DNA of 64,000 nt from an uncultured Candidatus Rokubacteria bacterium. Its GTDB lineage: Bacteria > Methylomirabilota > Methylomirabilia > Rokubacteriales > DASRDR01. Positions 46,052-64,000 of the stretch are shown piece by piece. How positions within the stretch are numbered: position 1 is the stretch's first letter; each line of letters opens with the position of its first letter. The translations under genes and the position numbers were made by a program. The stretch spans positions 512,001 through 576,000 of the forward strand of contig CAWDVE010000019.1 of NCBI GenBank assembly GCA_963805625.1. The letters run 5' to 3'. The notes under the pieces were generated by a model. It was not told the origin of the DNA and did not search any database. It worked only from the letters and a program-made list of their open reading frames with translations.

Positions 46052-47046
46052 CGTTGCAACCTGTCGGCGCGGAGCAAGACCTTCCGCGGTACCGTCAGTC
46101 CGAGGAGGTTGGCGGTCTTGAGATTCACCACGAGGTCAATCTTGTCGGCCCCTTCCACGGGCAGGTCCTGGGGGCGTGCCCCTCGCAAGATCTTCGCCAC
46201 CAACCGCGCTGCCTGAACCCCCTGCGCGTAATAGTCGGGCCCGTAGGAGACGAGACCGCCGTTGCCGACCCAGAGCGCCGCCGGAAAGACGGCCGGTATG
46301 CGGGCCGCCAGCGACGCTTCCAGGAGCACGGCCGGTATGTCCATCGTCGCGATGTCCGGGGGCAACAGTGCGTCGCCGGGTCCAAGTTCCTTGAGGGCCC
46401 GCTCGAGGTCCTCCGCGGTGCGCACCGGGCGGTCCACCACCCGAAGCTTCAACCGTGGTCCCGCTTCCTGGGCCTTCCGGGCCGCTGCCACAGAGGAGGG
46501 GTCGCCAGGATAATAAATGACCCAGATACGCTGGACGGCCGGTACGAGCTTCTGCAGAGTCTCAATGCGCTTCGGCACCAGCTCGGTGGTCAGGTTCGAC
46601 ACGCCGGTGACGTTCCCGCCCGGATGCGCGAGCTGTGCGACGATTCCGACGGCCACTGGATCTCCCACAAGGGTGAAAACGATGGGGACTTTCTGCGTGG
46701 CGTGTTTGGCTGCCCGGGTAGCAGCCTCGTTGCTGGTAAAGAGCAGATCGACCTGCGCCTTTACCAGGGCGGCCGTGGCGGCATTCGTGGCTGACGGATC
46801 GCCCTTGGTGAAATGGATGTCGAATGTGACGTCCCGGTCCTCGTCGAGCCCCAGTTCCTTGAGGCCGGCCTTGAGTCCCTCAACGGTGGGGTGGTTCGCC
46901 GTCCACGCCTCGTTGAGCACGCCGACGCGGTAGGGACGGCGCCCTTCCTCGGCGTCAGCCTTCGCGGAGAGAAGCACAAGAACGACCGCGAGTGCCCCCA
47001 ACGCGCAAATCGAGAGGAAGCGAGAAGATCTCAGCGCTGATTCCAC
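46048..47046 (-). CDS. ABC transporter substrate-binding protein (ABC_sub_bind type), orphan
   Basis: PIVF...DPV...HPGGNVTG, GGLVSYG, ILRGARPQDLPVE, NLKTA. Stop overlaps the kinase start. Confidence 0.88.
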   Translation of the reverse strand: MESALRSSRFLSICALGALAVVLVLLSAKADAEEGRRPYRVGVLNEAWTANHPTVEGLKAGLKELGLDEDRDVTFDIHFTKGDPSATNAATAALVKAQVDLLFTSNEAATRAAKHATQKVPIVFTLVGDPVAVGIVAQLAHPGGNVTGVSNLTTELVPKRIETLQKLVPAVQRIWVIYYPGDPSSVAAARKAQEAGPRLKLRVVDRPVRTAEDLERALKELGPGDALLPPDIATMDIPAVLLEASLAARIPAVFPAALWVGNGGLVSYGPDYYAQGVQAARLVAKILRGARPQDLPVEGADKIDLVVNLKTANLLGLTVPRKVLLRADRLQR

Positions 47047-48477: not shown

Positions 48478-49915
48478 TATCGCGCCATCTAAAATGTTAC
48501 CGAGCGGAAAGAGACGCGCCATCTGGAATGTAACCCTCGAGGGCCCCGTGGCCGGAGGAGGGTTACATGATGAGTCGCCGTGCGCGGTGGGAGGTCCTCA
48601 CGGCTGTCTACCCGCGCTACCGGGGCGCGGCCCGGGTCGAGCGGGGGAGGATCCTCGATGAGTTCTGTGAGACCACGGGCTACCAGCGCAAGTACGCGCT
48701 GCGGCTTCTCAACGGGCCGCCCCCGGGCCCCGAGCGGCCCCGTCGTCGGCGGCGCCCCGCCACGTACGGGCTGGCGGTGATCCAGGCGTTGACCGCGATC
48801 TGGGAGGCCGCGGGGTATCCCTGGTCTGTGCGGTTGAAGGCGCTGCTCCCCCTGTGGCTGCCCTGGGCACGCCGGCGCCTCCGGCTGTCCGCCACCGTGT
48901 GCCAGCAGCTCCGCGCGATCAGCCCCCGCCAGATCGACCGGCGCCTGGCCGCAACCAAGCGGCAGCGCACGACGCGCCGCTATGGCGGGACCCGACCGGG
49001 CACTCTCCTCAAGCACCACATTCCGCTGAAGACCGATCACTGGGATGTGACCGTGCCGGGCTTCACCGAGCTGGACTTGGTCGCGCATGCGGGCCATCGG
49101 GCCGATGGCGAGTTCGCCCATTCCCTGAACGTCACGGACATCCACACCACCTGGGTGGAGACCCGGGCGGTCCTCGGCCGCGGCGAACGCGGCGTCCAGA
49201 CGGCCTTGGACGAGATCCGGCAGGTCCTGCCCTTCCGCCTCCGGGGGATCGACTCCGACAACGGGTCCGAGTTCATCAACCATCATCTCTACCGCTACTG
49301 CCAGGCGCAGGAGATCCAGTTCACACGCGGCCGACCGTACAAGAAGGACGACAACGCCCACATCGAGCAGAAGAACTGGACGCACGTCCGGAAGCTCGTA
49401 GGCTACTGGCGCTACGACACGCCGGCGGCGGTGACCGCGCTGAATGCGCTCTATCGGCACGAGCTCCGGCTCTTGCACAACCTCTTCCTGCCGTCGGTCA
49501 AACTCCTCAGCAAGGAACGGGTCGGCGCGCGGTTGCGCCGTCACTACGATGCTCCGCGCACGCCCCTCGAGCGGGTCCAGAGCTGCCCCGAGGCGGATTC
49601 CCAGGCGGTGCGCGAACTCGTCCGCCTACGCGATCAGCTGGATCCCTTCGCCCTGGCCGAGGCCATCGATCGGAAGATCGAGCGGCTCGTCGCCTTGGCC
49701 ACGCCCGCGCGGGTGGCGGGCGTGCCCATCCCCACGGCGGCGAACTTCCCGCCCATCATCCCGGCACCGCCGAAGCCGCACCCGGGCCGCCCGCCCGGCA
49801 CCCCGGACTTCACCTTTGCCAACCACCTACGCCGGCCCCAGGCTCGGTCTCCGAGGGTTACATGTTAGATGGCTCGACGATTCACCCCTCGGTATCTTTC
49901 TTAGATGGCTTGACA
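48478..49915 (+). mobile_element. insertion sequence with DDE (rve-type) transposase and multi-motif imperfect terminal inverted repeats
   Basis: Left end TATCGCGCCATCTAAAATGTTACCGAG...GCCATCTGGAATGTAACCCTCG matches the reverse complement of the right end TGTCAAGCCATCTAAGAAAGATACCGAG...GCCATCTAACATGTAACCCTCG. No clear target duplication. Confidence 0.75.
48567..49868 (+). CDS. DDE-type integrase/transposase
   Basis: ELDLVAH (D1), IDSDNGSEF (D2), RPYKKDDNAHIEQKN (E); N-terminal ILDEFC...GY.RKYA HTH. Confidence 0.9.
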   Translation: MMSRRARWEVLTAVYPRYRGAARVERGRILDEFCETTGYQRKYALRLLNGPPPGPERPRRRRRPATYGLAVIQALTAIWEAAGYPWSVRLKALLPLWLPWARRRLRLSATVCQQLRAISPRQIDRRLAATKRQRTTRRYGGTRPGTLLKHHIPLKTDHWDVTVPGFTELDLVAHAGHRADGEFAHSLNVTDIHTTWVETRAVLGRGERGVQTALDEIRQVLPFRLRGIDSDNGSEFINHHLYRYCQAQEIQFTRGRPYKKDDNAHIEQKNWTHVRKLVGYWRYDTPAAVTALNALYRHELRLLHNLFLPSVKLLSKERVGARLRRHYDAPRTPLERVQSCPEADSQAVRELVRLRDQLDPFALAEAIDRKIERLVALATPARVAGVPIPTAANFPPIIPAPPKPHPGRPPGTPDFTFANHLRRPQARSPRVTC

Positions 49916-50752: not shown

Positions 50753-51388
50753 TCACGGGCGGCCGAGCGCCTGACGTACGACGGGCAGGAGGCGCTCGGC
50801 GAGGATCACCTGGCCCTGCTCGTCTGGGTGGAGCCCGTCGTAGGTGTGGCCGGGGACCACACCGTCGAGGAAGTCCTCGACCAGCGTCGCGCCCTCCGCC
50901 CGCGCGATCTTGCGGAGATGCCGTCGGTAGCCGTCGCCACCCACGCTGGGCAGACTGATGTGGACGAGGATCACGCCGGCCCCCTGCGACCGAATCCGCT
51001 GAGTGATCGTTCGGAGATTCGCGACGGTGCGCTCGGGTGGCCACTGTCCGAACATGTCGTTGACGCCCAGTTCGACGACGACCAGTCGGGGGCGGTGGGC
51101 CAGCACGTCCCGGTCGAGACGCAGTAGGCCCCCCTCGGTCGTGTCGCCCGAGATGCCCGCGTTGACGACGGGGAGCCCGAGCGCCTGTCCCAGCCGGTGC
51201 GGGAACGCCACGTCCTCGGAGAGCCGGTGTCCCGAGGTGATGCTGTCGCCGAGGAACACGACGGTCGGACCGATCGACGGCGCACCAGCCTCCTGGGACC
51301 GGCGCGTCGCGTGGGGCCACAGGGTCCAGCCGACGCCGATCAGGAGCACTGCGACCAGTAGGTACAGCACGCCTCGACGCGAGCCCAC
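50753..51388 (-). CDS. SGNH/GDSL hydrolase (TesA-like arylesterase)
   Basis: FLGDSIT, NAGISGDTT, ELGVND, DGLHP; N-terminal TM/signal. Confidence 0.88.
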   Translation of the reverse strand: MGSRRGVLYLLVAVLLIGVGWTLWPHATRRSQEAGAPSIGPTVVFLGDSITSGHRLSEDVAFPHRLGQALGLPVVNAGISGDTTEGGLLRLDRDVLAHRPRLVVVELGVNDMFGQWPPERTVANLRTITQRIRSQGAGVILVHISLPSVGGDGYRRHLRKIARAEGATLVEDFLDGVVPGHTYDGLHPDEQGQVILAERLLPVVRQALGRP

Positions 51389-51485: not shown

Positions 51486-52340
51486 ATGGAGACCGGGCAA
51501 CCCGGCGAGCGAGTCGGCGCGCGGACGGGGGATGGCCATCCGTCGCTCGGCCGCCGGACCGTGCTCGGGATGGCGCTCGCGTGGGCGATCGCCCGTCCCC
51601 GCCGCGCCGCCGCAGAGACCGAGGCCCGCAAGGGCGCCTTCAGCGCGCGGGCCGCCATCCTCTTCGGCGCCTTCCGATTCGAGGAGAGCGGTGTCATCGA
51701 GGAGACGATCGACCGCGGCGCCGGTCGCTACGAGGTGCGGATCACCGGCGGGGGTCTGGAGATGACCACCGAGATCGAGTCAACCGGCATTCTTCGCGAG
51801 GGGCGCTGGGCGCCGCTCCGGTTCACGGACCGTTTCGTGGTCTACGGCCGGGAGTCGCGGCTCGAGATCACCTATGACCATGCGCGCCGTCTCGTCCAGT
51901 ACCGGGGCCGGAGCGAGACGTTTGTCCTCCGGCGCCTCCGGATGACGGACGACACGCTGGCGGTGCCCGCGGGCATGCACGTGGACGACGTCGTCAGCGC
52001 GACCCTGAACTACGCGGAGGGCCGGTGGCCGGCGGAGGCTGACGGCAGGCTCGTCACCCAGGTCGTGCGCCGACAGCGAACCCGGGGCGAGCGCCCGGAC
52101 GACGCGGAGCGTCGCTACCGTGCGGAGCTGGTGCCCTTCGAGCTCCGCGTGGGGTCGGACGCGAGCGGCCGGGCGACCGCGGTCCTGGACATGACGCCGT
52201 TCTCGTCGTGGGCGCGTGAGGAGGAGCCGGCGCGGATCGTCTTCGGCGCCGACCGGCGTCCCGAGTCGATCACCGCCACTCTCATCCTGGGAACCAGCCT
52301 GGCGATCAGGATCGGACCGGCGCCCGTCGTAGCCTCGTAG
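51486..52340 (+). CDS. hypothetical exported beta-rich protein, possible Tat signal
   Basis: GRRTVL...AAA signal-like segment followed by alternating beta strands. Confidence 0.65.
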   Translation: METGQPGERVGARTGDGHPSLGRRTVLGMALAWAIARPRRAAAETEARKGAFSARAAILFGAFRFEESGVIEETIDRGAGRYEVRITGGGLEMTTEIESTGILREGRWAPLRFTDRFVVYGRESRLEITYDHARRLVQYRGRSETFVLRRLRMTDDTLAVPAGMHVDDVVSATLNYAEGRWPAEADGRLVTQVVRRQRTRGERPDDAERRYRAELVPFELRVGSDASGRATAVLDMTPFSSWAREEEPARIVFGADRRPESITATLILGTSLAIRIGPAPVVAS

Positions 52341-52355
52341 GGCGCCCGACCGGCC

Positions 52356-54659
52356 CTACGCGGCCGGCAGGCGGATCGTGAACGTCGTGCCGCGCCCGAA
52401 CTCCGAGTCGACGTCGATGGTCCCGCCGTAGCTCGAGATGATGCCGGAGACGATGGAGAGCCCGAGCCCCGTTCCGCTTTCCTTGGTCGTGAAGAACGGC
52501 TCGAAGATCCGCCGCCGCACGTCCGGGGGGATGCCGGTTCCGGTATCGGTGATCGACAGCAGGACCCAGTCTCCCTCGTGGCGCGTCTCGAGGGTTATGG
52601 ACCCTCCCCGTGGCATGGCGTCGACCGAGTTCAGCACGAGGTTGATCAGGGCCTCGCGGAGCTCCGCTGCGCGGGCCTGGATTCCGGGCACCGAACCCAG
52701 CTGCTGAGTGACCATGATCGGCGTGCCCTTGAGGTCGCTCTGCGACCAGCGCGGCCGCACGATCTCGATCGCCTGGCGGACGACCTCTCTGAGGTCCACG
52801 TGCTCGAGCCGGCGATCGACGTCCCGGCGGGCGAAGCGCCGGATGCGGCCGACCGTCTCCACGCCATCGCGGACGGCCTGCTCGATCGTCGACAGACCCC
52901 GCTGGAGGCGCTCGGGTGAGGGCTCGCGGGCGATGAGCTGCGTGTGTCCGAGGATCGCCTGGAGCAGGTTTGTGAAGTCGTGGGCCATGCCCATGGCCAG
53001 CTGACCGAGAGCGGATAGCTTCTCGGACCGGGCCAGCTGCTCCTCCCACCGACGCTGCTCGGTGACGTCGCGGACGATCAGGAGAAGCCCCGTCTCCTGA
53101 CGCCCGCCCCAGGGGATGGGCGAGCAGGTCGCGGTGAGATCCTGGACGGCGCGGTCGCCCTCCGCCTGGAGGCGCAGCACCACCGTCCGGCTTGCCCGCG
53201 GGGCCGCCAGCACCGGCTCGAGCTGTACCATCACGGCCGGCGGCATCGCGTCGCCGACGAGCTTGCCGCGCGCTTCGTCGGTTCCGCGGCCGAACATGCG
53301 CTCGGCCGCGGGGTTCCACGTGACGACCCGGCCCGCCGGATCGACCGCCACGATGGACTCGGCCGCCGACTCGATGAGGTTCTCCAGGAACGACTTGGCC
53401 TCCGAGAGCTCCCGGTGCAGGTTCGCGTTCCGGACGATCAGGGCGACCGACTCCGAGAACATCCGGAGCAGTTCCCGCTCGCTCGGGTCGAGCTCGCGGC
53501 TGGTTCCGACGACAAGCGCACCGAGGTGCCGTCCCTGCGCGACCAGGGGGAAGACGGCCCGTTCGGCCGTCTCGCTCCCCGCCGGCTCTCCCGGGTCGAG
53601 GAGGACCTGGACGCGCTCGTAACCTGCGCCCTGCTGGAGGTGATCGGTGATCGCGGCGAGCGTCCGGTCGAGCGCGGGGTCGACGAGCACGGCCGTGGAG
53701 ATTTGCCGCAGGATCTCGCCCTGGACCGCTCTGAGCGACTGCTCCGAGGCCTGGCGGGCGGCGGCAGTGAGGAGGGCAGACGTGCGCACGGCCGTGACCA
53801 TCAGATCCATCACGGGCCGGAGGGCTGCGAGGTCAGTACCGCCGGGCGCCGTCCGGCGATGGTAGAGCGCGAGGTGGGCCCACACGCGAGGCAGCCCCTC
53901 GTCCACCGTCGGCACGACCATGGCCGCCTCGAAGCCAAGGGCATCGAGCTCGGCCGGCCACGGCAACGGCCAGGCGAGGCCCGGCCGGCTGCCGACGGGC
54001 TCCCGGACGCCGTGTAGCGCCGTCCGCCAGGCGGCAACCACCGCGTCGCCCACTGCCGCCGGCAGCTCGGAGTGCACGATCGCGGCCGGTTCCGTGCTCA
54101 GGAAGGACGCCGCGGCGGCACCCGTCACGCGCTGGGCTTCGTGCAGCATGGCGCGCAGGAGTCTGGCGAGGTCGCCTCCCTGCACGGGATCCCGCCGCTG
54201 CGCGAGATCACGCATCTTTCCGATCAAGGGCGCGAGCGCGACCCCCGGGCCTTCCGTGCGCTGTCGCCGTCGGGCGAGGGCCCGCTCCGCGGCTTCCTGG
54301 AGCTCCCGGGGCGCGAATGGCTTTACCAGGTAGTCCATCGCGCCGAATCGCATCGCCCGTTGGACCGTGTCGAGCGACGCGTAGGCCGTGATCATCACGA
54401 CCTCCACGCCGGCATCGATCGCCTTGACGCGCTCGAGGAGCTGGACGCCATCCATCCGCGGCATCTTCACGTCCATGAAGATCACGTCCGGGCGAAGCCC
54501 GGGCAGGACCGCCAGCACCTCCTCGCCGCTCCCGGCCGTGAAGACCTGGTAGCGCGGCTTGAGGATCATGCGGATGGCCTCGCGCGGGCCTTCCTCGTCG
54601 TCCACGACCAATACGCGCGGCTCGGTCATGCGGGAGCCCCCCCCTGGGTCTCGGCTCAC
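52356..54659 (-). CDS. hybrid kinase: REC - GAF-like - PAS - HisKA - HATPase
   Basis: VLVVDDE, MDVKMP, KPF; WNPAAERMFG; AHDFTNLL; NLVLNSVDA, DTGTGI, FFTTK.SGTGLGL. Confidence 0.88.
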   Translation of the reverse strand: MSRDPGGGSRMTEPRVLVVDDEEGPREAIRMILKPRYQVFTAGSGEEVLAVLPGLRPDVIFMDVKMPRMDGVQLLERVKAIDAGVEVVMITAYASLDTVQRAMRFGAMDYLVKPFAPRELQEAAERALARRRQRTEGPGVALAPLIGKMRDLAQRRDPVQGGDLARLLRAMLHEAQRVTGAAAASFLSTEPAAIVHSELPAAVGDAVVAAWRTALHGVREPVGSRPGLAWPLPWPAELDALGFEAAMVVPTVDEGLPRVWAHLALYHRRTAPGGTDLAALRPVMDLMVTAVRTSALLTAAARQASEQSLRAVQGEILRQISTAVLVDPALDRTLAAITDHLQQGAGYERVQVLLDPGEPAGSETAERAVFPLVAQGRHLGALVVGTSRELDPSERELLRMFSESVALIVRNANLHRELSEAKSFLENLIESAAESIVAVDPAGRVVTWNPAAERMFGRGTDEARGKLVGDAMPPAVMVQLEPVLAAPRASRTVVLRLQAEGDRAVQDLTATCSPIPWGGRQETGLLLIVRDVTEQRRWEEQLARSEKLSALGQLAMGMAHDFTNLLQAILGHTQLIAREPSPERLQRGLSTIEQAVRDGVETVGRIRRFARRDVDRRLEHVDLREVVRQAIEIVRPRWSQSDLKGTPIMVTQQLGSVPGIQARAAELREALINLVLNSVDAMPRGGSITLETRHEGDWVLLSITDTGTGIPPDVRRRIFEPFFTTKESGTGLGLSIVSGIISSYGGTIDVDSEFGRGTTFTIRLPAA

Positions 54660-56674
54660 TGATGAGTTCGCGGCAGCGTCAGGACGAAGCGGATCTCGCC
54701 CTCCTGGCCGCCGAGCGTCAAGGTCCCGCCGTGGCCTTCGACGATCTTCTGTGTCACGCCTGGACCGACGTCGAGTAGCTTGTCCGAGGCGATCGCGAGC
54801 GGGCTGAACAGGTGCTCGCGCTCGAGAGTCGAGAGCTGAGCGGGGCGTCCCGTGAGTGAGAGGCGCACTCGGCCGGGATCCTCCGGGGACGTCTGCAGGT
54901 GGATGGCCACGCGACCATCCGCATCGACGCGGTTGGCGAGGAATCGGACGAGGTAGCCGATCGCCTTGGTCAGTTGCTCGCGATCGGCCTTGACGACGAG
55001 GCCCTTCTGCGGCGCATAGAGGATCGCCGTCAGCTGCTCGGTGCGCTCCGGGACCTGGAGCAGGAAGAGCGCGGCGTCGCTCGGCCCCTTCGACCGCTCC
55101 AGGCGGACCGAGAGCTCCTCCAGCGCGTCGTGCAAGAGCTGCCGGACGTCGCAGAAGTCCACCTTGTAGTCGCGGTCACCGGCGAGTGTGATGAGCTTGT
55201 CGACGAGCGAGATCAGGCGCTGGGTGTCCTTGCCGACGACTGTGAGGAACGTTTCCCGGAACTCAGGGTCCTCGTACCGGTGCGGGAGCAGCTCGAGGAA
55301 CGTGTAGATCGACACGAGAGGGTTCTTGATCTCGTCCGTCAGGCGGAGCAGCACCCGGTTGAGGAGATCGAGCGTCTGGCTCGTCTGGCGCTCCCGGTGA
55401 AGCTTGTGCCGTGGCGTCGGGTCGTCGACCAGCATGACGGCGCCGCACGGGGTGCCGGTGGCGTCGAGGATCCGGGATGTGCTGAGCTCGAGCGTGATCT
55501 GGCGGCGGGGTAGCTCCACCTCCACTAACCGGAGCTCCCGCCCGCCCCGCACGGTCTCGTAGAGCAGGTCGCCGAGCGGCGAGGGCAGGACGCGGAGGTC
55601 CTGCCCGAGGACGTCGCCGAGGGAGAGCTCGAGAATCTGCTCCGCCCGGCGGTTGAATCGGGTCACCCGTCCGGAGGCGTCGATGGTGATGGCGCCGCTC
55701 TGGAGGTGGGTCAGGACCTGCTCGATGAAGCTGTGCTGGGCCCGGACGGTGTTGAAGAGGGCGATGTCCTCGACCGCCATGGCGACCTGGCTCGCCAGCG
55801 TGAAGAGCCGCTCCAGATCCTCTGAGCCGTAGGGCTGTCCCGTGACCCGCGGCCCGAGCACGAGGATTCCGACCAGCTTGGCCTGGACCCACAGCGGTAC
55901 CGCGACCTCGCCTCCCAGGAGCGCGAGCTCCCGGGCCGCCTCGAGCCAGTCGGGCTCCCGCTCGAGCTCGCCCCGCACGGCCAGCCGCACGTGCTGTCGA
56001 AACCAGTCGGCGAGCCCCTCACCGCTCTCCAGACGGAGCCGCTCGGCCAGATCGGGGTTGAGCCCCCGGAAGCCACGCGGCCGGTACCGGTGCTCGTCGT
56101 CGACCAGGAGGAGCGCCACTCGCCCCGGCCGCACGAGCTCGGTGATCGCGTCCAGGAAGAACTCGACGACACGCTCGATGTCGAAGTGCGCGGAGAGGAG
56201 CTTGCCCAGCTCCTTCAGCACCGTTCCGAGCGCCGTCGAGCTTCCATGGCCGTTCGTCGCAGCCGGGGCCGAGGCCGGCTCCCGCCGCGTCCGGTCCCGC
56301 CGAAGCGAAGCGACCTCCAGCTCGAGGCGCCGCACGCGGAGTCCCTGGTCGATCGCCAGCCGGAGCGGGGTGTCCGGTGTGTCGCGGGGCAGCGCGAGGT
56401 CGCAGCGGTCCACTCCCGGGGGAACCGGATCGTCGGGAGCCAGGAGCCCGACCAGGAACGGTCGCGACGCGATGGCGGCCGCTGTCGCCAGCTCGTCCGG
56501 GTCCACGTTGGCCGACCCGAAGTCCAGGAGGAGCAGGTCGGCCTGGCCGGCGGCACCCGGCTCGAGAGCCCGGGCCAGCGATCCGCTGGCCCCGAAGTCG
56601 AGGCTGCCGTTCAGGAGCCGGCGCAGGCGGGCGGCCAGGCCGGCATCGCGCGAGAGCACGCGGACCGTTCTCAT
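54656..56674 (-). CDS. pseudo-receiver - GAF - PAS - degenerate histidine kinase (pseudokinase)
   Basis: H-box reads LTDEIKNPL (His->Asp); N, G1 and G2 boxes lost (KAIGYLVRFL, LTGRPA, LLDVGPGV). Confidence 0.8.
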   Translation of the reverse strand: MRTVRVLSRDAGLAARLRRLLNGSLDFGASGSLARALEPGAAGQADLLLLDFGSANVDPDELATAAAIASRPFLVGLLAPDDPVPPGVDRCDLALPRDTPDTPLRLAIDQGLRVRRLELEVASLRRDRTRREPASAPAATNGHGSSTALGTVLKELGKLLSAHFDIERVVEFFLDAITELVRPGRVALLLVDDEHRYRPRGFRGLNPDLAERLRLESGEGLADWFRQHVRLAVRGELEREPDWLEAARELALLGGEVAVPLWVQAKLVGILVLGPRVTGQPYGSEDLERLFTLASQVAMAVEDIALFNTVRAQHSFIEQVLTHLQSGAITIDASGRVTRFNRRAEQILELSLGDVLGQDLRVLPSPLGDLLYETVRGGRELRLVEVELPRRQITLELSTSRILDATGTPCGAVMLVDDPTPRHKLHRERQTSQTLDLLNRVLLRLTDEIKNPLVSIYTFLELLPHRYEDPEFRETFLTVVGKDTQRLISLVDKLITLAGDRDYKVDFCDVRQLLHDALEELSVRLERSKGPSDAALFLLQVPERTEQLTAILYAPQKGLVVKADREQLTKAIGYLVRFLANRVDADGRVAIHLQTSPEDPGRVRLSLTGRPAQLSTLEREHLFSPLAIASDKLLDVGPGVTQKIVEGHGGTLTLGGQEGEIRFVLTLPRTHQ

Positions 56675-59160
56675 CGCGCCACCTCGGGCCGCACGGTCTC
56701 GGCCACGGAGCCGACGAGCGCGGGGAACTGCACCACGAAGGTGATGCCGAGCCCGGCCGGACCGGGATCCGCCCAGAGCGCCGCGCGGTGCGCGTCCGCG
56801 ATGCTGCGGCAGATCGCGAGCCCGAGGCCCGTTCCGCTGGACTTCGTCGTGAAGAACGGCTCGAAGACCCGGGCGAGATCCTCGCGCGGGATCCCGGGGC
56901 CGGTGTCCGTGACCCGGACCGTCACCAAGCCGCGGTCCGCGCGCTCGCGATCGGCCCGGACGGTCACCGTCAGGGTGCCGCCCGCGGTCATGGCTTCCAG
57001 GCCGTTCAAGAACAGGTTCAGGAAGAGCTGCTTGAGCTGGTCGAGCTCGCCCAGGATCGGTGGCAGATCACGCTCGATCTCGACCACCGAGCGCACCCGC
57101 CGGCGATCGGCCTCTCCACGAAGCAGGTCGAGCGTCTCCGCCAGGGGCACCTGGAGGTCGAGCGGGCGCAGCGGGAACGCAGTGGGGACCGCCAGGGCCC
57201 GGAGCCGCCCCAGGAGCTGTTCGATGCGGTGGATCTCCTTGACGGCGACCTTCGCGAAGGTCGAGCGGAACTCGTGGTCGTCGGCTCGCTCGGGCAGGAG
57301 CTCCGCGAACGTCTTGATCGCCACGAGCGGGTTCCGGATCTCGTGAGCGATGCCGGTTGCCATCGCGCCGAGGGCGGAGAGGCGATCGGTGCGCCGCTTG
57401 TCCTCCTCGAGCGCCTTGAGCCGCGAGTGGTCGTTGAGCACGGCGATCGCTCCGCTGACCGCCCCCTTGTGGTCGTGAAGCGCCGACGTGTGGACCACCA
57501 GGGGCAGAATCCGCCCCTCGGGATGGCTCACCGTCACCTCCGTCTCGGACTCCGACTGCTCGACGAGGCTCGACCGGAGGACGGCTCGAATGGCGGGGTC
57601 CAGCACATCGAGCGGCCGGCCCACCACGCGGGCGGCCTCGATCCCGAGAATGCGCTCTGCCGCCGGATTGAGGGTCATGACGACGCCGTCTTCCCGGGCG
57701 GCGATGACGCCCGAGTCCATGCGGCCGAGCAGACGCTCGTTGTACTCCTTGATCGAGACGATCTCGTGGTAGAGCTGCGCGTTCTTGAGCCCGATGGCGA
57801 GCTCGCTCGCCAGGGTCTCCAGGAGGTCGAGCTCGTCGCCAAAGAACGAATCGCCGGAGAGCTTGGGGCCGATCAGGATGATCGCCATCAGCCGGCCGTC
57901 CCGGACCGGCACGGCCGCCTCGGCACCCCAGGCCCGGAGATCCTGGAGCACGGTAGTCGGGTCCACGCTGCCGGGCCGAGCCCCGACAAGATCCCAGACG
58001 AGCGCGGCCGTCCCGTCCGACAGCTCCTGGACGAGCGGGCTCGTCCCTGACACCGGCTCCGCAGGCCACACGAAGGTCGGATCGACGTGCCGGGCCACGA
58101 GGGGTGTAAAGGCGTCGCGGTCCCGGATCCGCACGAGGATGGCAAGGCTCTCGAGACGGAGGGCACGGTCGATCAGGTCCGCCATGGCCATCGCAACCCG
58201 CGCGGGGTCGGCAAAGGTGCCCATCGCCCGGCTCCCCTCGCGGACGAGGGCACGCGTGTCGTAGGCCGGCCGGTACAAGTACCGGTCGGCGAGATGGCGC
58301 ATGCGCGGCGCGAATCCGAGGAACAGAGCGGAGGCGGCCAGGCCCAGCACCACCGCGCCGGCGGGCGAGAGCGTCGGGTTCGCCTCGGGGAAGAGCGCGT
58401 CCAGGAGGATCTCACCCCCGATCAGCAGGGCCGCCGTCAGCAGCCAGCCCGCCGCGTAGGCCGCTGACCGGCTGATGACGACCCGCACGTCCATGAGCCG
58501 GTACCGCAGGATGCAGTGGGCAGTAAAGCCGAGCCAGAGTAGCGTGAAATAGGGCCCGTACACGCCGAGCCGCGAGGATCCGGTGACGAGCGGCACGACG
58601 ACGCCGAGCGTGAGGGCGCCCGCCGCCGTGAGCCCGGCCCCGAGGAAGACGTAGTGGAGCTGGGCCCGGGCGAAGCCCGTGGTGTGTCGGAGCTTGCCCG
58701 CCAGGTGGGCGAGGGCCCAGGCAGAGCACAGGATCATGTACGCTCCGAGCAACCGGAAGGCCGGTCCGTACACCGGCTGCAGGTAGTTGGCCTCCTCGAG
58801 CCGCACGTCGGCCACAATCCAGGGCGAGAACGACAGGCCCGACATGAACAGGCCGAGGAAGGTCACCACCTGGGCGAGGGCCGGCCGGCGGGCCGCCGGC
58901 CGCGGGAACACCACCGCGAAGTGAGCGAACGTCACCGGGACGAGGGCTGCTGTCGCCCAGAGCACGCGCACCACGGCGAGGACCACCACCGGGTCGACCA
59001 GGCTCCGGCGGATGCCGACCAGGGTGCCCCACACAGCGAGGGTCGTCGCGAACGCCGCAAACCACCGGTTCACCGCGCGACCGGGGTTTCGCACCCAGAC
59101 CACGACCGCCAGCGCCACCTCGATCAGCGCGACCAGAAAGAGGCCGACGATCGGCGTCAT
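56671..59160 (-). CDS. multi-TM (HisKA_7TM-like) - GAF - PAS sensor histidine kinase
   Basis: About 8-9 hydrophobic helices in the first ~280 aa (NPGRAVNRWF..., ILRYRLMD), GAF GPKLSGD, AHEIRNPL, NLFLNG, DTGPGI, GTGLGL. Confidence 0.88.
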   Translation of the reverse strand: MTPIVGLFLVALIEVALAVVVWVRNPGRAVNRWFAAFATTLAVWGTLVGIRRSLVDPVVVLAVVRVLWATAALVPVTFAHFAVVFPRPAARRPALAQVVTFLGLFMSGLSFSPWIVADVRLEEANYLQPVYGPAFRLLGAYMILCSAWALAHLAGKLRHTTGFARAQLHYVFLGAGLTAAGALTLGVVVPLVTGSSRLGVYGPYFTLLWLGFTAHCILRYRLMDVRVVISRSAAYAAGWLLTAALLIGGEILLDALFPEANPTLSPAGAVVLGLAASALFLGFAPRMRHLADRYLYRPAYDTRALVREGSRAMGTFADPARVAMAMADLIDRALRLESLAILVRIRDRDAFTPLVARHVDPTFVWPAEPVSGTSPLVQELSDGTAALVWDLVGARPGSVDPTTVLQDLRAWGAEAAVPVRDGRLMAIILIGPKLSGDSFFGDELDLLETLASELAIGLKNAQLYHEIVSIKEYNERLLGRMDSGVIAAREDGVVMTLNPAAERILGIEAARVVGRPLDVLDPAIRAVLRSSLVEQSESETEVTVSHPEGRILPLVVHTSALHDHKGAVSGAIAVLNDHSRLKALEEDKRRTDRLSALGAMATGIAHEIRNPLVAIKTFAELLPERADDHEFRSTFAKVAVKEIHRIEQLLGRLRALAVPTAFPLRPLDLQVPLAETLDLLRGEADRRRVRSVVEIERDLPPILGELDQLKQLFLNLFLNGLEAMTAGGTLTVTVRADRERADRGLVTVRVTDTGPGIPREDLARVFEPFFTTKSSGTGLGLAICRSIADAHRAALWADPGPAGLGITFVVQFPALVGSVAETVRPEVAR

Positions 59161-59172
59161 GGCAGTGCGGGG

Positions 59173-60402
59173 CTAGTTGTCGTCCGGGCGGCCGAGGATG
59201 ACCGCCGAGTGTGTGGGGCCGATGGCGCGCGAGGTGACCAGGACGCGGTTCACCCGGGCGGGCCGACCCCGGCCGGGCACGTAATCGAGGTCGCACTCGG
59301 GGGCGGGGATGTCGTGGTTCATGGTCGGAGGAACGAACTGCTCCGCCAGCGAGAAGCAGGCAGCCACCACCTGGAGGGCCCCACCCGCCGCGAACGGCTG
59401 GCCGATCATCGCCTTGATCGAGGTCACCGGGACGTTGTACGCGTGCCGGCCGAGCACGGCGCGATACGCCGCGCTCTCGGCCCGGTCGTGGCACGGTACG
59501 CCACCCCCGTGCGCGTTGACGTGGTCGATCTCCCCCGGGTCCAGGCGCGCTTCCTTGAGCGCCGCCCGCATGGCGGCCTGGAGTGACGCGCCCTCGGGGT
59601 TCACCGTACGGAGATCCAGGCCGTCGGTGCCGCTGCCGTACCCCAGCACCTCAGCGTAGACGTGGGCGCCCCGTGCCCGCGAGTGATCGAGATCTTCCAG
59701 CACATACATCCCGGCGCCCTCGCCCAGGACTGAGCCGTCGCTGAGCGCGTCGTAGGGGCGCAGCGCCTGCGCCGGCGGGCCGCTCCAGCGCGAGAGCCAA
59801 CCGAGCTTGCCCCAGGCCGCATGCACGGAGGTCGCCAGGGGTGCGTCGGCGGCTCCGGCCAGCGCGCCGACGATGCGGCCGGCGCCGATTTGGGCACACG
59901 CCCACTGGATCACGTCCACACCCGAGGCACAGCCGGAGCCAAGCGTCATGGTCTGGCCCTGGAGGCCCAGATCCACGGCCGCATGGTTCGTCAGGGCGTG
60001 CCCGATGCTCTCGACGACCATCGAGGCATCGCGCCGGCGCATCGACCGGCCCTGCAGCCGCTCGAGGACCTCCTGGAACTCGGCCACCGCGCTGGCGCCG
60101 CTCGCGACGCAGACCGCGAACCCGCTGGCAGCCCGGAGGCCTGGCAGGCCCGCGTCGTCGTACGCCATTCGGGCGGCGGCCATGCCGAACTGGGCGAAGC
60201 GCCCCGCAGGCGTGAGCCGCTCACCGGCCAGCTCGAAGCCCTTGACCTCGGCCGCGACCCGGCAGGCGAACGGCGCCGGGTCGAAACGGGTGATCGGTCC
60301 CACCCCGAGCGCTCCTTCACGGAGTCCGTGCCAGAACGGCTTGACGCCAATCCCGATCGGCGTCACGGCTCCGAGGCCGGTGATGACGACGCGACGTCTC
60401 AC
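59173..60402 (-). CDS. beta-ketoacyl-ACP synthase family protein, atypical (Cys-His-Gln)
   Basis: RRVVITGLG, GSGCASG, GEGAG, NAHGGG, SIKAMIGQPFAAGG. Confidence 0.85.
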   Translation of the reverse strand: MRRRVVITGLGAVTPIGIGVKPFWHGLREGALGVGPITRFDPAPFACRVAAEVKGFELAGERLTPAGRFAQFGMAAARMAYDDAGLPGLRAASGFAVCVASGASAVAEFQEVLERLQGRSMRRRDASMVVESIGHALTNHAAVDLGLQGQTMTLGSGCASGVDVIQWACAQIGAGRIVGALAGAADAPLATSVHAAWGKLGWLSRWSGPPAQALRPYDALSDGSVLGEGAGMYVLEDLDHSRARGAHVYAEVLGYGSGTDGLDLRTVNPEGASLQAAMRAALKEARLDPGEIDHVNAHGGGVPCHDRAESAAYRAVLGRHAYNVPVTSIKAMIGQPFAAGGALQVVAACFSLAEQFVPPTMNHDIPAPECDLDYVPGRGRPARVNRVLVTSRAIGPTHSAVILGRPDDN

Positions 60403-60653
60403 CCAGGCGCCTGTTTGAGGCGGCTCTCGACCAGAGCCACCATGTCCGCCACCGTCTTGAGCTTGGTCAGCTCCTCCTCGGGCACCTCGATGTCAAACTT
60501 GCGCTCGACCGAGATGGCGAGCTCGACCGCGTCGAGGGAATCGAGGCCGAGATCCTCGACCAGCTTCGCCTCCGGCACCAGCTGCTCCGGCGGCAGTCCG
60601 AGCCGTGCTGACATGATCTCCCGAAGCCCATCCGCGACGTCTTGCGCCGCCAC
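60399..60653 (-). CDS. acpP: acyl carrier protein
   Basis: DLGLDSLDAVEL phosphopantetheine Ser motif; 84 aa, acidic. Confidence 0.92.
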   Translation of the reverse strand: MAAQDVADGLREIMSARLGLPPEQLVPEAKLVEDLGLDSLDAVELAISVERKFDIEVPEEELTKLKTVADMVALVESRLKQAPG

Positions 60654-61883
60654 TCATGCCTCCCCGCGGCTCAGGACCAGGATCGAGTTGGTCCCGCCGA
60701 ACGCGAACGAGTTCGACATCGCTACCCGGATCGGGACACGGCGGGCCTGGTTTGGCACGTAGTCCAGGTCGCACGCGGGATCCGGCGTCGTGTAGTTGAT
60801 CGTGGGGGGCAGGACTCCGTGGTGGAGAGCGAGCGCCGTCGCGATGGCTTCCACGCCTCCGGCGGCTCCCACGAGGTGGCCCGTCATCGATTTGATCGAG
60901 CTGACCGCCAGGCGCCGGGCATGCTCGCCGAAGACGGCCTTGATCGCCTCGGTCTCGTGCTGATCGTTCAGCGGGGTGGACGTCCCGTGCGCGTTGACGT
61001 AGTCCACCGCTTCCGGGGCGAGCTTCGCGTCCGCGAGGGCGAGCCGCATCGCCCGGGCGGGCCCGTCGGACGACGAGGCCGTCGGGTGGTTGGCGTCGGC
61101 CGAGAGCCCGTACCCCACCACCTCGGCGTAGATGCGGGCGCCCCGCGCCCGCGCCGCCTCCAGGATCTCGAGGACGAGGATCCCCGCGCCCTCCGCGAGG
61201 ACAAACCCGTCGCGATCCTTGTCGAATGGGCGGCTGGCAAGAGTCGGGGCATCGTTCCGTGTCGACAGCGCCCGGATCGACGAGAAGCCGGCGACGACCA
61301 GGGGATGGATGAGGGCGTCGGTTCCCCCGGCGAGCATGACGTCGGCGTCGCCGCGCTGGATCGTCCGGAAGGCGTCGCCGACGGCCTGGCTGCTCGCGGC
61401 ACAGGCCGTGGTGGGGCTGAAGATCGGCCCGCGTGCCGCCGTCCGCATGGACACCCACCCGGCCGCCATGTTGGGCAGGCTGCCCGGCAGCGCGTACGCG
61501 CTCACGGCCGCGATGCCCTCGCGCTGGAGCAGGTCCCACGAGGATAGGAGGAGAGGCACTCCGCCCATGCCGGTTCCGATCGACACGCCGACCCGGTCGT
61601 TCTGGCCATCGATCTTGACGCCGGAGTCCGCGAGCGCCGCTTGCGCGGAGATGAGCGCGTAGTGGATGAACCCATCGGTCCGCACGATGTCCCGCCGGGG
61701 TAGGTGAGCGGCGGCGTCGAAGTCAGGAATCTCTCCCGCGATCTGGCTCGGGTAAGGTGAGGGGTCAAATCGAGTGATCCGGCGGACCCCGCTCCGGCCG
61801 TGAGTCAGCCCGTCCCAGAAGGCGTCGATGCCGACGCCCAGGGGTGAAACCACGCCCAGACCGGTGACCACGACGCGCCGCAT
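60654..61883 (-). CDS. fabF: beta-ketoacyl-ACP synthase II (FabF-like)
   Basis: TACAAS (Cys), NAHGTST (His), KSMTGHLVGAAG (His), SNSFAFGG. Confidence 0.9.
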   Translation of the reverse strand: MRRVVVTGLGVVSPLGVGIDAFWDGLTHGRSGVRRITRFDPSPYPSQIAGEIPDFDAAAHLPRRDIVRTDGFIHYALISAQAALADSGVKIDGQNDRVGVSIGTGMGGVPLLLSSWDLLQREGIAAVSAYALPGSLPNMAAGWVSMRTAARGPIFSPTTACAASSQAVGDAFRTIQRGDADVMLAGGTDALIHPLVVAGFSSIRALSTRNDAPTLASRPFDKDRDGFVLAEGAGILVLEILEAARARGARIYAEVVGYGLSADANHPTASSSDGPARAMRLALADAKLAPEAVDYVNAHGTSTPLNDQHETEAIKAVFGEHARRLAVSSIKSMTGHLVGAAGGVEAIATALALHHGVLPPTINYTTPDPACDLDYVPNQARRVPIRVAMSNSFAFGGTNSILVLSRGEA

Positions 61884-62109: not shown

Positions 62110-63189
62110 TCAGGCTGGCCCGGGCGACCCGGTGGCGCCGGCGCGAGCGAGGATCTCGGCCACGAGCTCCCGATGCTCGGCGCAGCCGATGACGTCCAGG
62201 TCAGGGCAGGGCCGCGTCCGCTCGACCCACCGCCGGAGAGCCGCCCGGCGCCCGCACGCCGCCTGGGCGGCGTCCGGGGTCAGCGCCCCGCTCGCGAGCG
62301 CTTGGCCCACGGCCGCGACCGCCTCAGCTCGTGTCTCGGGCTCACGGCAGACGAGGGCGAGATCGCCGCCCACGGTGAGGAACCGCGCGGCCGCGATACC
62401 GACGCCCCAGGCGCTCCTGACTGCCGCCATCTCGAGATCGTCGCTCAGGACGAGGCCCCCGAAGTCGAGCTCCCGCCGCAGGAGTCCCGCGACGACGCCG
62501 GTTGACAGCGAGGCGGGCCACTCCGGATCGAGGGCCGGGTACCGCACGTGGGCCACCATGACTGCGGGGCATCCGGCCGCGAGGGCTCGGCGGAACGGCA
62601 GCAGCTCCGTCCGTTCGAGCTCGCCGACCGGGGCGTCCACCTCTGGGAGGGCCACGTGGGAATCGAGGGGCGTCCGCCCATGACCCGGGAAATGCTTGGC
62701 CACTGGTATGAGGCCTTCCGCCAGGGCTGCGCGGGTGAACGCCGTGCCGCAGGCCGCGACCGCCTCGGCGTCCTCCGCGTACGCTCGGTCGCCGATGACG
62801 ACGCTTTCCGGGTCCGTCCGGCAATCGAGGACCGGCGTGAGCCCGGAGTCGAACCCCGCGGCGCGCAGTTCGCGGGCCATCGCTCTGGCCACGCGCCCGG
62901 CGAGCGCGGGCTCGCCCGTCCGGCCGATCGTCGCCGCGGGAGGAAAGCACGTGAATGGCGGCGGGAGGCGATGGACGCGCCCGCCCTCGTGGTCTACGAG
63001 CACGAGCACGTCTGGGCCGAGCTCGCGCGCTGCCGAGGTCAGCGAGAGGACCGCGTCGAGGGTGGGGCAGTTTCGCGCGAAGAGCACGACGCCGCCCAGC
63101 CCAGCTTCGGCGGCCAGGTCGGCGATGGCCTCCGGCAGCGCGGTGCCCTCGAACCCGAGCGCGAGGAGCTCTCCGGCGCCGGTGCTCAT
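62110..63189 (-). CDS. nagZ: beta-N-acetylhexosaminidase (GH3, NagZ)
   Basis: GVVLFARN, VDHEGGRV, KHFPGHG...DSH, SDDLEM. Confidence 0.9.
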   Translation of the reverse strand: MSTGAGELLALGFEGTALPEAIADLAAEAGLGGVVLFARNCPTLDAVLSLTSAARELGPDVLVLVDHEGGRVHRLPPPFTCFPPAATIGRTGEPALAGRVARAMARELRAAGFDSGLTPVLDCRTDPESVVIGDRAYAEDAEAVAACGTAFTRAALAEGLIPVAKHFPGHGRTPLDSHVALPEVDAPVGELERTELLPFRRALAAGCPAVMVAHVRYPALDPEWPASLSTGVVAGLLRRELDFGGLVLSDDLEMAAVRSAWGVGIAAARFLTVGGDLALVCREPETRAEAVAAVGQALASGALTPDAAQAACGRRAALRRWVERTRPCPDLDVIGCAEHRELVAEILARAGATGSPGPA

Positions 63190-63287
63190 TGGGCTACCTT
63201 TGGACGGCCTTCGGCCGGTGGGGCTCCGCGGGCGTTGATTCGACGGCGATTGGACGGCCATCGGCCTGTGGCGGCCTGCGGGTTCAC
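63186..63287 (-). repeat. 102-bp dispersed intergenic element, copy B (33-codon mini-ORF)
   Basis: Homologous to 35840-35941. GTG overlaps the ampG TGA and the TGA overlaps the nagZ ATG. One more repeat unit lies at ~63296-63325 inside the ampG 3' end. Confidence 0.85.
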
Positions 63288-64000
63288 TGGCCCGCCCTGT
63301 CGGACGGCTTTCGGCCTGTTGGCTCGCCTCGCCCGGCTGTCGGGCTGGGGGGGAGCCAGGATGCGATGAGCGGGACGAGACAGAGGCCGGGGAGCGACGC
63401 GAGAAAGGTGAGCGCGAAGTACGGGCCGTAGCCCCACCGCTCGGCGCCGATGCCGCTCACCGCGCCCGCGAGGCGGCCCGTGAACGAGAAGAGCGAGGAG
63501 AGGAACGCGTACTGGAGCGTGGCTCGCTCTGGATCGCAGACGGCTAGGAAGAATCCGAGGAACGCGGCGGTCCCGAGCCCGCCCGCGAATGAGTCGATCA
63601 TGGACGCCGCGTACAGGGCCGGCCAGGGCAGCTCCCACAGGGCGACCGCAGCGTAGCCGAGGTTCGAGACCGCCTGAGGCACGCCGAGCGCCCACAGGGC
63701 GGTCAGGGTGCCGTAGCGCTGCATGAAGGCGCCACCCGCCAGGGCCCCGGCGATCGAGAGCCCGATGCCGAGAGCCGTCGGGACCAGCCCGATCTCGAAG
63801 AGCGAGCGCCCACGGTCCACCCAGAATGGCTTAACCATCGGGCCGATCGCGAACTCGCCCAGCTTGTAGGTGAGGACGAAGAGGATGAGCGGGACCGCGC
63901 GCCAGGTGCCGATCCAGCCCACGAAGGGGGCGAGCCAGTGCCGGCGCGCCTCGGCGGGGACGTCGACCCGCGGGATCCGTCGGACTGCCAGGCCGAGCCC
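63284..64000 (-). CDS. ampG: AmpG-family muropeptide MFS permease (5' end outside window)
   Basis: LFVLTYKLGE...MVKPFWVDRG, GGLGTAAF, ATLQYAFLSSL; directly upstream of nagZ. Confidence 0.85.
   Translation of the reverse strand, partial: GLGLAVRRIPRVDVPAEARRHWLAPFVGWIGTWRAVPLILFVLTYKLGEFAIGPMVKPFWVDRGRSLFEIGLVPTALGIGLSIAGALAGGAFMQRYGTLTALWALGVPQAVSNLGYAAVALWELPWPALYAASMIDSFAGGLGTAAFLGFFLAVCDPERATLQYAFLSSLFSFTGRLAGAVSGIGAERWGYGPYFALTFLASLPGLCLVPLIASWLPPSPTAGRGEPTGRKPSDRAGQ

Follow-up and report, generated by a model that had tools for sequence, protein, structure and literature searches.

A ketosynthase and a receptor-shaped histidine kinase exchanged together in Rokubacteria: a candidate locus for lipid signalling

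Why would a ketosynthase of the fatty acid type be encoded directly ahead of a membrane histidine kinase? The question is raised by a six-gene cassette on the minus strand (52356-61883) of a 64,000-nt stretch of DNA, hereafter the window, from an uncultured Candidatus Rokubacteria bacterium. An earlier interpretation, made by a model without database searches (hereafter the sequence-only reading), had proposed that two ketosynthases (KS1 and KS2) and an acyl carrier protein (ACP) together make a lipophilic signal that is read by a multi-helix histidine kinase (HK1) and relayed through two further kinase-like proteins (HK2 and HK3). Our comparison of the locus across its order points to a smaller unit, in which KS2 and the sensor domain encoded next to it appear to be inherited and exchanged as a pair. 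Judged from sequence, the KS2/sensor cassette is likely the mark of a lipid signal between cells, not described before, that would come in several dialects.

The cassette and its core

All six open reading frames (ORFs) were recovered on the minus strand where they had been placed, and Pfam and NCBIfam profiles upheld the domain makeup assigned to them. KS1 (60654..61883) is a canonical FabF-type ketosynthase of 409 aa matching profile TIGR03150, and is followed by an ACP with a DSL attachment motif (60399..60653; TIGR00517, above cut-off) and by KS2 (59173..60402), a FabF-fold ketosynthase below the fabF cut-off, classed by profile, tree and fold model. HK1 (56671..59160) combines HisKA_7TM, GAF, PAS, HisKA and HATPase_c domains. 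HK2 (54656..56674; profiles and alignment) has GAF, PAS and HisKA domains behind a degenerate receiver-like N-terminus, and HK3 (52356..54629, or from GTG 54659 in the longest ORF) matches receiver (REC), GAF, PAS, HisKA and HATPase_c profiles. The claim that these genes are packed almost without gaps stood for the first four junctions: the KS1 stop codon abuts the GTG start of the ACP gene, a GTGA overlap joins ACP and KS2, 12 nt separate KS2 from HK1, and an ATGA overlap joins HK1 and HK2. At the fifth, the GTGA overlap of HK2 and HK3 is present in the DNA, but only with the longest-ORF start of HK3; ATG 54629 is the likelier start, because a G-rich run lies just upstream of it and close homologues align from that methionine, and it would leave a 26-nt gap.

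The GC content of the cassette matches the rest of the window, and purifying selection acts on each of the six genes (ratio of nonsynonymous to synonymous substitution rates, dN/dS, 0.05-0.43 against three congeners). A promoter scan returned no sigma-70-like site, with terminator-like sites at chance level, and three public RNA runs held 5-11% of words in short contigs that are uninformative on transcription, strand or level.

In the window's family (f1, 20 genomes), 14 of the 18 other genomes with fetched loci keep all six genes in order, which argues that the arrangement is more than chance. The four exceptions are frameshifted (G014), cut by a contig end (G017) or eroded (G008 and G004). 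G004 (L037) has kept KS1-ACP and lost KS2 with all three kinases; in G008 (L038), KS1, ACP and HK1 are kept, internal deletions truncate KS2 and HK3, and HK2 is gone. In loci outside f1, the genes usually run KS2, kinase A, kinase B, HK2 and HK3. Conservation of the ketosynthase-kinase adjacency had been named beforehand as a check, and it holds throughout: the 3' end of KS2 is followed within 241 nt by a seven-transmembrane (7TM) domain in 58/58 loci, 34 of them fetched from ketosynthase matches and 24 from HK2 matches, linked by design.

By this comparison KS-ACP-KS is not the conserved unit, and a synthase role for the ketosynthase pair is not supported. Orthologues of KS1 (E 1e-165) occur in 23 of the 183 genomes of the order, namely 18 of 20 in f1, 3 of 159 in f2, one in f3 and this genome, and so in only 4/162 genomes outside f1; the HK2 profile (E 1e-120) finds 136/183, a tally that includes the unpublished G055 as one count. 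KS2 itself is missing residues that normal condensation requires, as detailed below. No fetched locus outside f1 gave a match to KS1 or ACP beside KS2, and KS1 occurs without KS2 in four genomes (G004, G022, G026 and G150). Since KS2 always adjoins a 7TM domain and KS1-ACP elsewhere sits alone or in other clusters, the core of the system is, on this sequence comparison, KS2 with its 7TM kinase, and KS1-ACP is a portable chain-building unit.

Joint exchange of KS2 and sensor types

The sensor of HK1 matches HisKA_7TM (PF16927) over residues 7-225, about 58486-59142, at 36.9 bits against a gathering threshold of 28.6, and 39 of the 41 homologues match the same model in their sensor regions. HK1 has its HisKA phospho-site at His606, and no other 7TM kinase was found in this genome. 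The N-terminal model of HK1 (mean predicted local distance difference test score, pLDDT, 90.4) consists of seven helices with a beta-hairpin between helices 4 and 5, plus two more long helices. The first 230 residues superpose on folds of the G protein-coupled receptor (GPCR) type (best Z 16.9, root-mean-square deviation 3.3, 207 residues aligned), and all 50 VIA fold matches listed are GPCRs or GPCR-like folds; Foldseek gave E 0.01 or worse, helical bundles typically reach Z 14, and a fold shows no function. A bacterial receptor is absent among the fold matches listed, although such a relative may still exist, and searching by sequence linked the sensor profile to no solved structure. GPCR-like folds have already been noted in histidine kinases (PMC13581589; this and the other sources are cited from their available excerpts). 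The analogy with LuxN that had been drawn for HK1 found weak sequence support among the homologues, four of 41 matching the membrane part of the LuxN model (NF041945) at positions within 112-311 with a best E of 1.6e-4; their scores are 12-19.9 bits against a cut-off of 1550, and hydrophobic segments can match by composition. A profile scan found no receiver domain in HK1, which thus has neither the score nor the C-terminal receiver of a LuxN.

Rank correlations of tree distances were computed over 24 genomes outside f1 with both kinases, frameshifted loci and f1 being left out. KS2 correlates with the 7TM domain of kinase A at rho 0.85, as against 0.14 with that of kinase B and 0.28 with HK2; the 7TM domain of kinase B follows HK2 (rho 0.74). 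Given HK2, the partial correlation between KS2 and the 7TM domain of kinase A is 0.84 (permutation p 0.0005). Trees of 11 genomes show the same split, HK2, HK3 and both the GAF-PAS region and the core of kinase A grouping G042 with G030, and KS2 and the 7TM domain of kinase A grouping G042 with G027. Approximately unbiased (AU) tests reject G042+G030 for KS2 and the 7TM domain of kinase A, and G042+G027 for GAF-PAS, core, HK2 and HK3. Between G042 and G030, identity is 84-86% for HK2 and HK3, 53% for KS2 and 34% for the 7TM domain of kinase A. The co-phylogeny check that the sequence-only reading had asked for thus supports a pairing of KS2 with the sensor.

Outside f1, G+C content at third codon positions (GC3) is 0.51-0.70 in the KS2 and 7TM coding regions versus 0.79-0.98 in HK2 and HK3, and within kinase B the 7TM part (0.56-0.67) lies below its own core (0.77-0.96). 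Two or three KS2/7TM types coexist in each of four genera (g16, g20, g24 and g25). In G071 and G109 the pair of KS2 and kinase A has moved to a new location; G050 has lost both, with ORFs that look transposase-like on inspection in their place, and retains kinase B, HK2 and HK3. That kinase B persists without a matching KS2 fits a ligand-binding receptor. Quorum-sensing loci are recognised by linked, co-evolving synthase and receptor genes; linkage and co-evolution are both found here, for a gene whose synthase role is itself putative.

The simplest counter-explanation is that KS2 and the kinase are functionally unrelated and travel together as neighbours only, any recombination tract being able to co-transfer adjacent DNA. 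We consider this the least probable of the readings weighed here, given the adjacency in every KS2 locus, the joint relocation and joint loss, and the fact that ketosynthases of separate tree branches precede 7TM kinases in Nitrospirota and in metagenomes. The latter loci come from scans that each covered 1/64 parts of a genome or a metagenome collection. The genome scan, run with generic FabF patterns, gave 80 loci, mostly ordinary FabF and type II polyketide synthase (PKS) genes, of which two, both from Nitrospirota, have a 7TM kinase downstream. These two operons encode a ketosynthase, an ACP, a thioester-reductase-family or methyltransferase protein, a 7TM kinase, a pseudokinase-like protein and a receiver protein. 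Among 80 metagenome loci, a ketosynthase lies directly before a 7TM kinase in seven and two genes after it in one, and in another (L164) a methyltransferase takes the place of the ketosynthase. The presence of reductase-family and methyltransferase genes indicates that the slot before the 7TM kinase elsewhere holds enzymes of the chain-release type. Among the outputs of the related loci beyond the order are sigma-54 activators and HD-GYP proteins, and two of these cassettes (L102 and L157) have FadL-type channels beside them. The larger L157 cassette (L157:411-14352) has a sigma-54 gene, a REC kinase and the FadL-type channel on one side and, on the other, genes for a radical-SAM-family protein, a degenerate ketosynthase, a 7TM kinase, a pseudokinase, a sigma-54 activator and a REC-GAF-HD protein.

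Candidate roles of KS2, its partners and its neighbours

What KS2 might do can be read in part from its active site, for which FabF residue numbers, apart from the role of the threonines, are general background. KS2 scores 323.5 bits to the TIGR03150 fabF profile, below the cut-off of 493.75. The KS2 sequences form a clade of their own (Shimodaira-Hasegawa-like approximate likelihood ratio test, SH-aLRT, 100), and the fold model is FabF-like (pLDDT 88.8; TM-score 0.95-0.96 to FabF, as a monomer). KS2 matches Pfam ketoacyl-synt and FabF structures and lies outside the FabH-derived head-to-head clade of PpyS, OleA and DarB; the DarB model gave no match at E 0.001. Elongating ketosynthases use a Cys-His-His triad, and mutating either of two pantetheine-anchoring threonines impairs activity (PMC9006962). 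In the window, KS2 keeps Cys158, His298 and Lys330, has Gln335 at the second histidine and has lost both threonines. All 42 KS2 sequences have the catalytic Cys, the first His with an Asp after it, and the Lys; in place of the second His, 32/42 have Gln and accordingly no Cys-His-His triad. The first threonine site is occupied by Asn (27), Ser (12) or Gly (3; Gly in this genus), and the second is hydrophobic. The clade has also gained polar residues of its own, namely Glu131 (41/42), His135 (40/42), Asp163 (42/42) and His392 (38/42; Arg in the window). Nine kinase-linked ketosynthases from outside the order could be aligned: all keep the Cys, seven have lost one or both His and two are canonical. 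Because both threonines and usually the second His are lost while Cys, His and Lys are kept, KS2 probably does not elongate chains and instead carries an acyl group on its Cys. Its dN/dS of 0.05-0.12 against three congeners argues that it is not decaying.

HK2 had been called a pseudokinase, and this is confirmed: the phospho-His is replaced by Asp447, the N and G boxes are degenerate and no HATPase_c match was found at E 0.01. The exchange of His for Asp holds in 22/22 HK2 rows from the order, while two Nitrospirota rows keep His. Its receiver-like N-terminus is recognised through Pfam receiver matches in distant orthologues. HK2 and HK3 are both soluble, and HK3 has an intact receiver Asp and H-box.

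With these parts, we posit that KS2 is the synthase of a small acyl signal and HK1 its receptor, in an inherited pair, a proposal for which we see roughly even chances. In f1, KS1 with its own ACP would build the acyl chain, and other families would draw on housekeeping fatty acid synthesis. KS2 would take the chain on Cys158 and free it non-decarboxylatively, by head-to-head condensation as in PpyS and OleA, by acyl transfer or by hydrolysis. The product would enter the membrane, bind the GPCR-shaped, LuxN-like domain of HK1 and switch its kinase or phosphatase activity. HK2 may tune HK1 or HK3 by heterodimerisation, the receiver of HK3 would accept the phosphate and pass it to an unlinked output, and the KS2/sensor types would be signal dialects (pherotypes).

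Several observations weigh against this proposal. Pantetheine-anchoring threonines are found in 0/42 KS2 sequences at either site and a conserved Arg/Lys is Gly in 42/42, so KS2 may bind acyl-ACP poorly; and kinase-linked ketosynthases elsewhere lose the catalytic His residues in different ways with the Cys kept, a pattern that suits a binding role as well as an enzymatic one. The six-gene block contains neither an exporter gene nor a DNA-binding output gene. The sensor region of the window's own HK1 has no LuxN-model match. In another set of 24, KS2 also follows the GAF-PAS region of kinase A (rho 0.75), and the whole kinase therefore often moves. The tree groups submitted to the AU tests were named after the trees had been seen, and kin are not independent. 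Because KS2 and the 7TM block are physically adjacent, linkage alone would produce some of their co-transfer. The outer side of the 7TM domain has no excess of type-specific residues (5/20 vs 9/26, p 0.53). Finally, GC3 is uniform in f1 (0.86-0.99), and it is therefore relatives, not the window's own family, that show the dialect pattern.

Retention of the Cys in all 42 KS2 sequences, alongside loss of the elongation set, would also suit a cytoplasmic sensing subunit. KS2 would then hold an acyl chain, an electrophilic lipid or an inhibitor of fatty acid synthesis on its Cys and dock on the inner face of HK1, so that the system reports the cell's own lipid state, with KS1 and ACP loading KS2 in f1. 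We regard this as the main rival, possible if rather improbable. It fits the loss of the pantetheine anchors, the missing histidines in 7/9 kinase-linked ketosynthases outside the order, the occurrence of KS2 alone outside f1, with no ACP or release enzyme, and the tight translational coupling and co-exchange, which suit a protein-protein interface; there is also a precedent in CqsA, which inhibits CqsS without need of catalysis (PMC13729885). However, kinase B and other 7TM kinases (L164, L168 and L201) persist with no matching ketosynthase, the new invariant polar residues of KS2 (Glu131, His135, Asp163 and His392) look catalytic, and it is hard to see why a gauge of internal lipids should exist in several interchangeable forms per genus. 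Synthase and docking-subunit roles of KS2 can in principle coexist, because CqsA both makes CAI-1 and binds CqsS (PMC13729885).

A Cys with one His may suffice for acyl transfer or hydrolysis, and a further explanation is that the kinases sense a foreign lipid which KS2, as a hydrolase or acyl transferase, edits or destroys, with no self-made signal. The FadL-type uptake channels beside the L102 and L157 cassettes would agree with this, as would the GDSL hydrolase and DUF3108-like genes adjoining the window cassette. Yet in f1 a complete KS1 and ACP have been recruited upstream, pointing to synthesis, and reductase- and methyltransferase-family genes occupy the slot in Nitrospirota. We consider the foreign-lipid explanation unlikely.

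The identity of KS1 bears on whether KS1 and KS2 form a heterodimer like the ketosynthase/chain-length factor of a minimal type II PKS, with the kinases regulating its product. An operon with a ketosynthase on either side of an ACP, in an order intact in 14 other f1 genomes, is what such a synthase would look like. Chain-length factors lack the catalytic Cys, which is kept in 42/42 KS2. None of the KS2 loci fetched outside f1 contains KS1, and four genomes have KS1 without KS2; cyclase and reductase genes are absent, and KS1 groups with housekeeping FabFs in the tree. The cassette thus shows neither the obligate pairing nor the Cys-less second subunit of a type II PKS, and we judge this explanation highly improbable. 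KS1 scores 568.6 bits to TIGR03150 (cut-off 493.75), has Cys161, His299, His336 and both threonines intact, as is the full set in 16/16 KS1 sequences, and is 55% identical to the housekeeping FabF of this genome. The latter lies in a separate yceD-rpmF-plsX-fabD-fabG-acpP-fabF cluster on contig C10, which settles the question, flagged at the outset, of whether the genome has another fabF/acpP; FabH-family matches were also located elsewhere in the genome, outside the cassette. Inspection of the six-gene block agreed that it holds no fabD, fabG, fabH, plsX, reductase or exporter gene, and with neither the sole fabF/acpP of the genome nor linked plsX, fabD or fabG it is not a housekeeping fab cluster. 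KS1 is a paralogue of housekeeping FabF and an add-on specific to f1, with the ACP travelling alongside.

Outside f1, KS1-ACP precedes FeeM and ThiF genes in G026 and G150, stands alone in G022 and reaches a contig end in G081. As ACP, FeeM and ThiF genes adjoin it in two of the four loci, the KS1 clade outside f1 appears to serve small acyl-metabolite clusters. In G026 (L062:7411-12949) and G150 (L257:7932-11415), the KS1 orthologue and ACP head a FeeM N-acyl amino acid synthase/ThiF cluster, which in G026 also has a nitroreductase and a MacB/FtsX permease and which resembles oxazolone clusters (10.1101/2020.06.11.147165). An N-acyl-amino-acid/oxazolone route in the window's genome was rejected, as tblastn found no match there to FeeM, nitroreductase or MacB of G026, and ThiF matched weakly; a weak FeeM-family N-acetyltransferase (GNAT) beside a plsY-type gene on contig C13 was likewise rejected as a partner of the cassette. 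This genome has a second lipid cluster (L002:6780-17076, on C4 at about 23.8-34 kb) with a lipid A-type acyltransferase, four ketosynthase-domain genes around an ACP, a glycosyltransferase, FtsX/ATP-binding cassette (ABC) transporter genes and a CDP-alcohol phosphatidyltransferase.

The surroundings of the cassette were also surveyed. A DUF3108-like gene (51486..52340, plus strand) is convergent with the cassette in the window; it adjoins the cassette across the order and is divergent and upstream in family f2. It persists in G004 and G050, from which KS2 has been lost, and its membership in the cassette is therefore uncertain. Divergent from it in f1 is the GDSL hydrolase gene (50753-51370, minus strand, in the window). 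Upstream of KS1 in most f1 loci are a GH3 beta-N-acetylhexosaminidase gene (62110-63261) and a major facilitator superfamily (MFS) transporter gene (63284-64000), both on the minus strand, probably a peptidoglycan-recycling pair and mere syntenic neighbours. Further away, a 433-aa ORF (48567-49868, plus strand) is integrase/transposase-like by inspection and lies within a stretch of lower GC (44-50 kb, GC 0.63-0.67), and inspection of translations at 43664-47046 (minus strand) indicates a HAMP/GAF-type histidine kinase with an ABC substrate-binding-like gene upstream.

Known systems and biological meaning

In its sequence-based layout and evolution, the cassette is like a synthase-receptor quorum-sensing locus, and the tests run place it outside the Phc, Lux, Cqs, PpyS and type II PKS families. 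Compared by gene makeup, one close layout is that of Ralstonia phcB-phcS-phcR-phcQ, which likewise joins an acyl-signal enzyme, a membrane sensor kinase and soluble receiver/kinase proteins in one operon, the soluble proteins being without DNA-binding domains (PMC8578825). The related cassettes L102 and L164 even carry a methyltransferase in the enzyme slot, as Phc does; the cassette enzyme described here is FabF-fold and not a methyltransferase, and a His-less pseudokinase is added. With LuxM/LuxN and CqsA/CqsS of Vibrio it shares a multi-helix membrane kinase, here predicted to bind an acyl signal in the membrane. LuxN has nine predicted helices, with the acyl signal bound between helices 4 and 7 (PMC5007282), as compared with seven plus two in the HK1 model. 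The synthase class is another one, HK1 has cytoplasmic GAF and PAS domains and no attached receiver, and the block holds no LuxU/LuxO-type relay.

PpyS has the ketosynthase fold and performs head-to-head condensation with a conserved Glu (E105) as base (PMC4578411). KS2 shares this fold with PpyS, OleA and DarB, and its Glu131 may be the counterpart of E105. PpyS is, however, FabH-derived, and PluR, a LuxR-like protein, reads its signal, whereas KS2 is of the FabF type, with the same fold as FabF but neither a score above the FabF cut-off nor the full residue set (KS1 has both), and is paired with a membrane kinase. In the Bacillus comQXPA pherotypes, polymorphic signal genes accompany a receptor with a variable N-terminus and a conserved cytoplasmic kinase part (PMC4008528). 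The cassette has a like pattern of KS2 and a variable 7TM domain before conserved kinase parts; comQXPA, by contrast, uses a peptide signal, and the types here are defined by phylogeny alone. In the open-licence literature (supplements excluded), no description of a ketosynthase paired with a 7TM kinase was found.

Given how widely its pseudokinase core occurs in the order, the cassette is, on genomic distribution, a near-core regulatory circuit of an uncultured soil lineage and not a one-off cluster. More speculatively, and as a tentative suggestion only, the FabF-derived, non-elongating ketosynthase and the GPCR-shaped kinase could together constitute a previously unknown signalling family of Rokubacteria and several other uncultured phyla, with a new class of acyl signal made by unknown chemistry, a ketosynthase possibly docking on its receptor, pairs traded among lineages as lipid pherotypes, and a second receptor listening in on other types. 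The literature naming the HisKA_7TM domain reports, in the excerpts available, no ligand for it, and a genetically paired enzyme offers a direct route to one; cognate and non-cognate pairs that occur naturally in one genus provide built-in controls of specificity. If the proposal is true, the cassette would represent a new class of signal synthase, would supply a ligand for a GPCR-shaped family of bacterial receptors, and would show a lipid signal diversifying in the manner of pherotypes.

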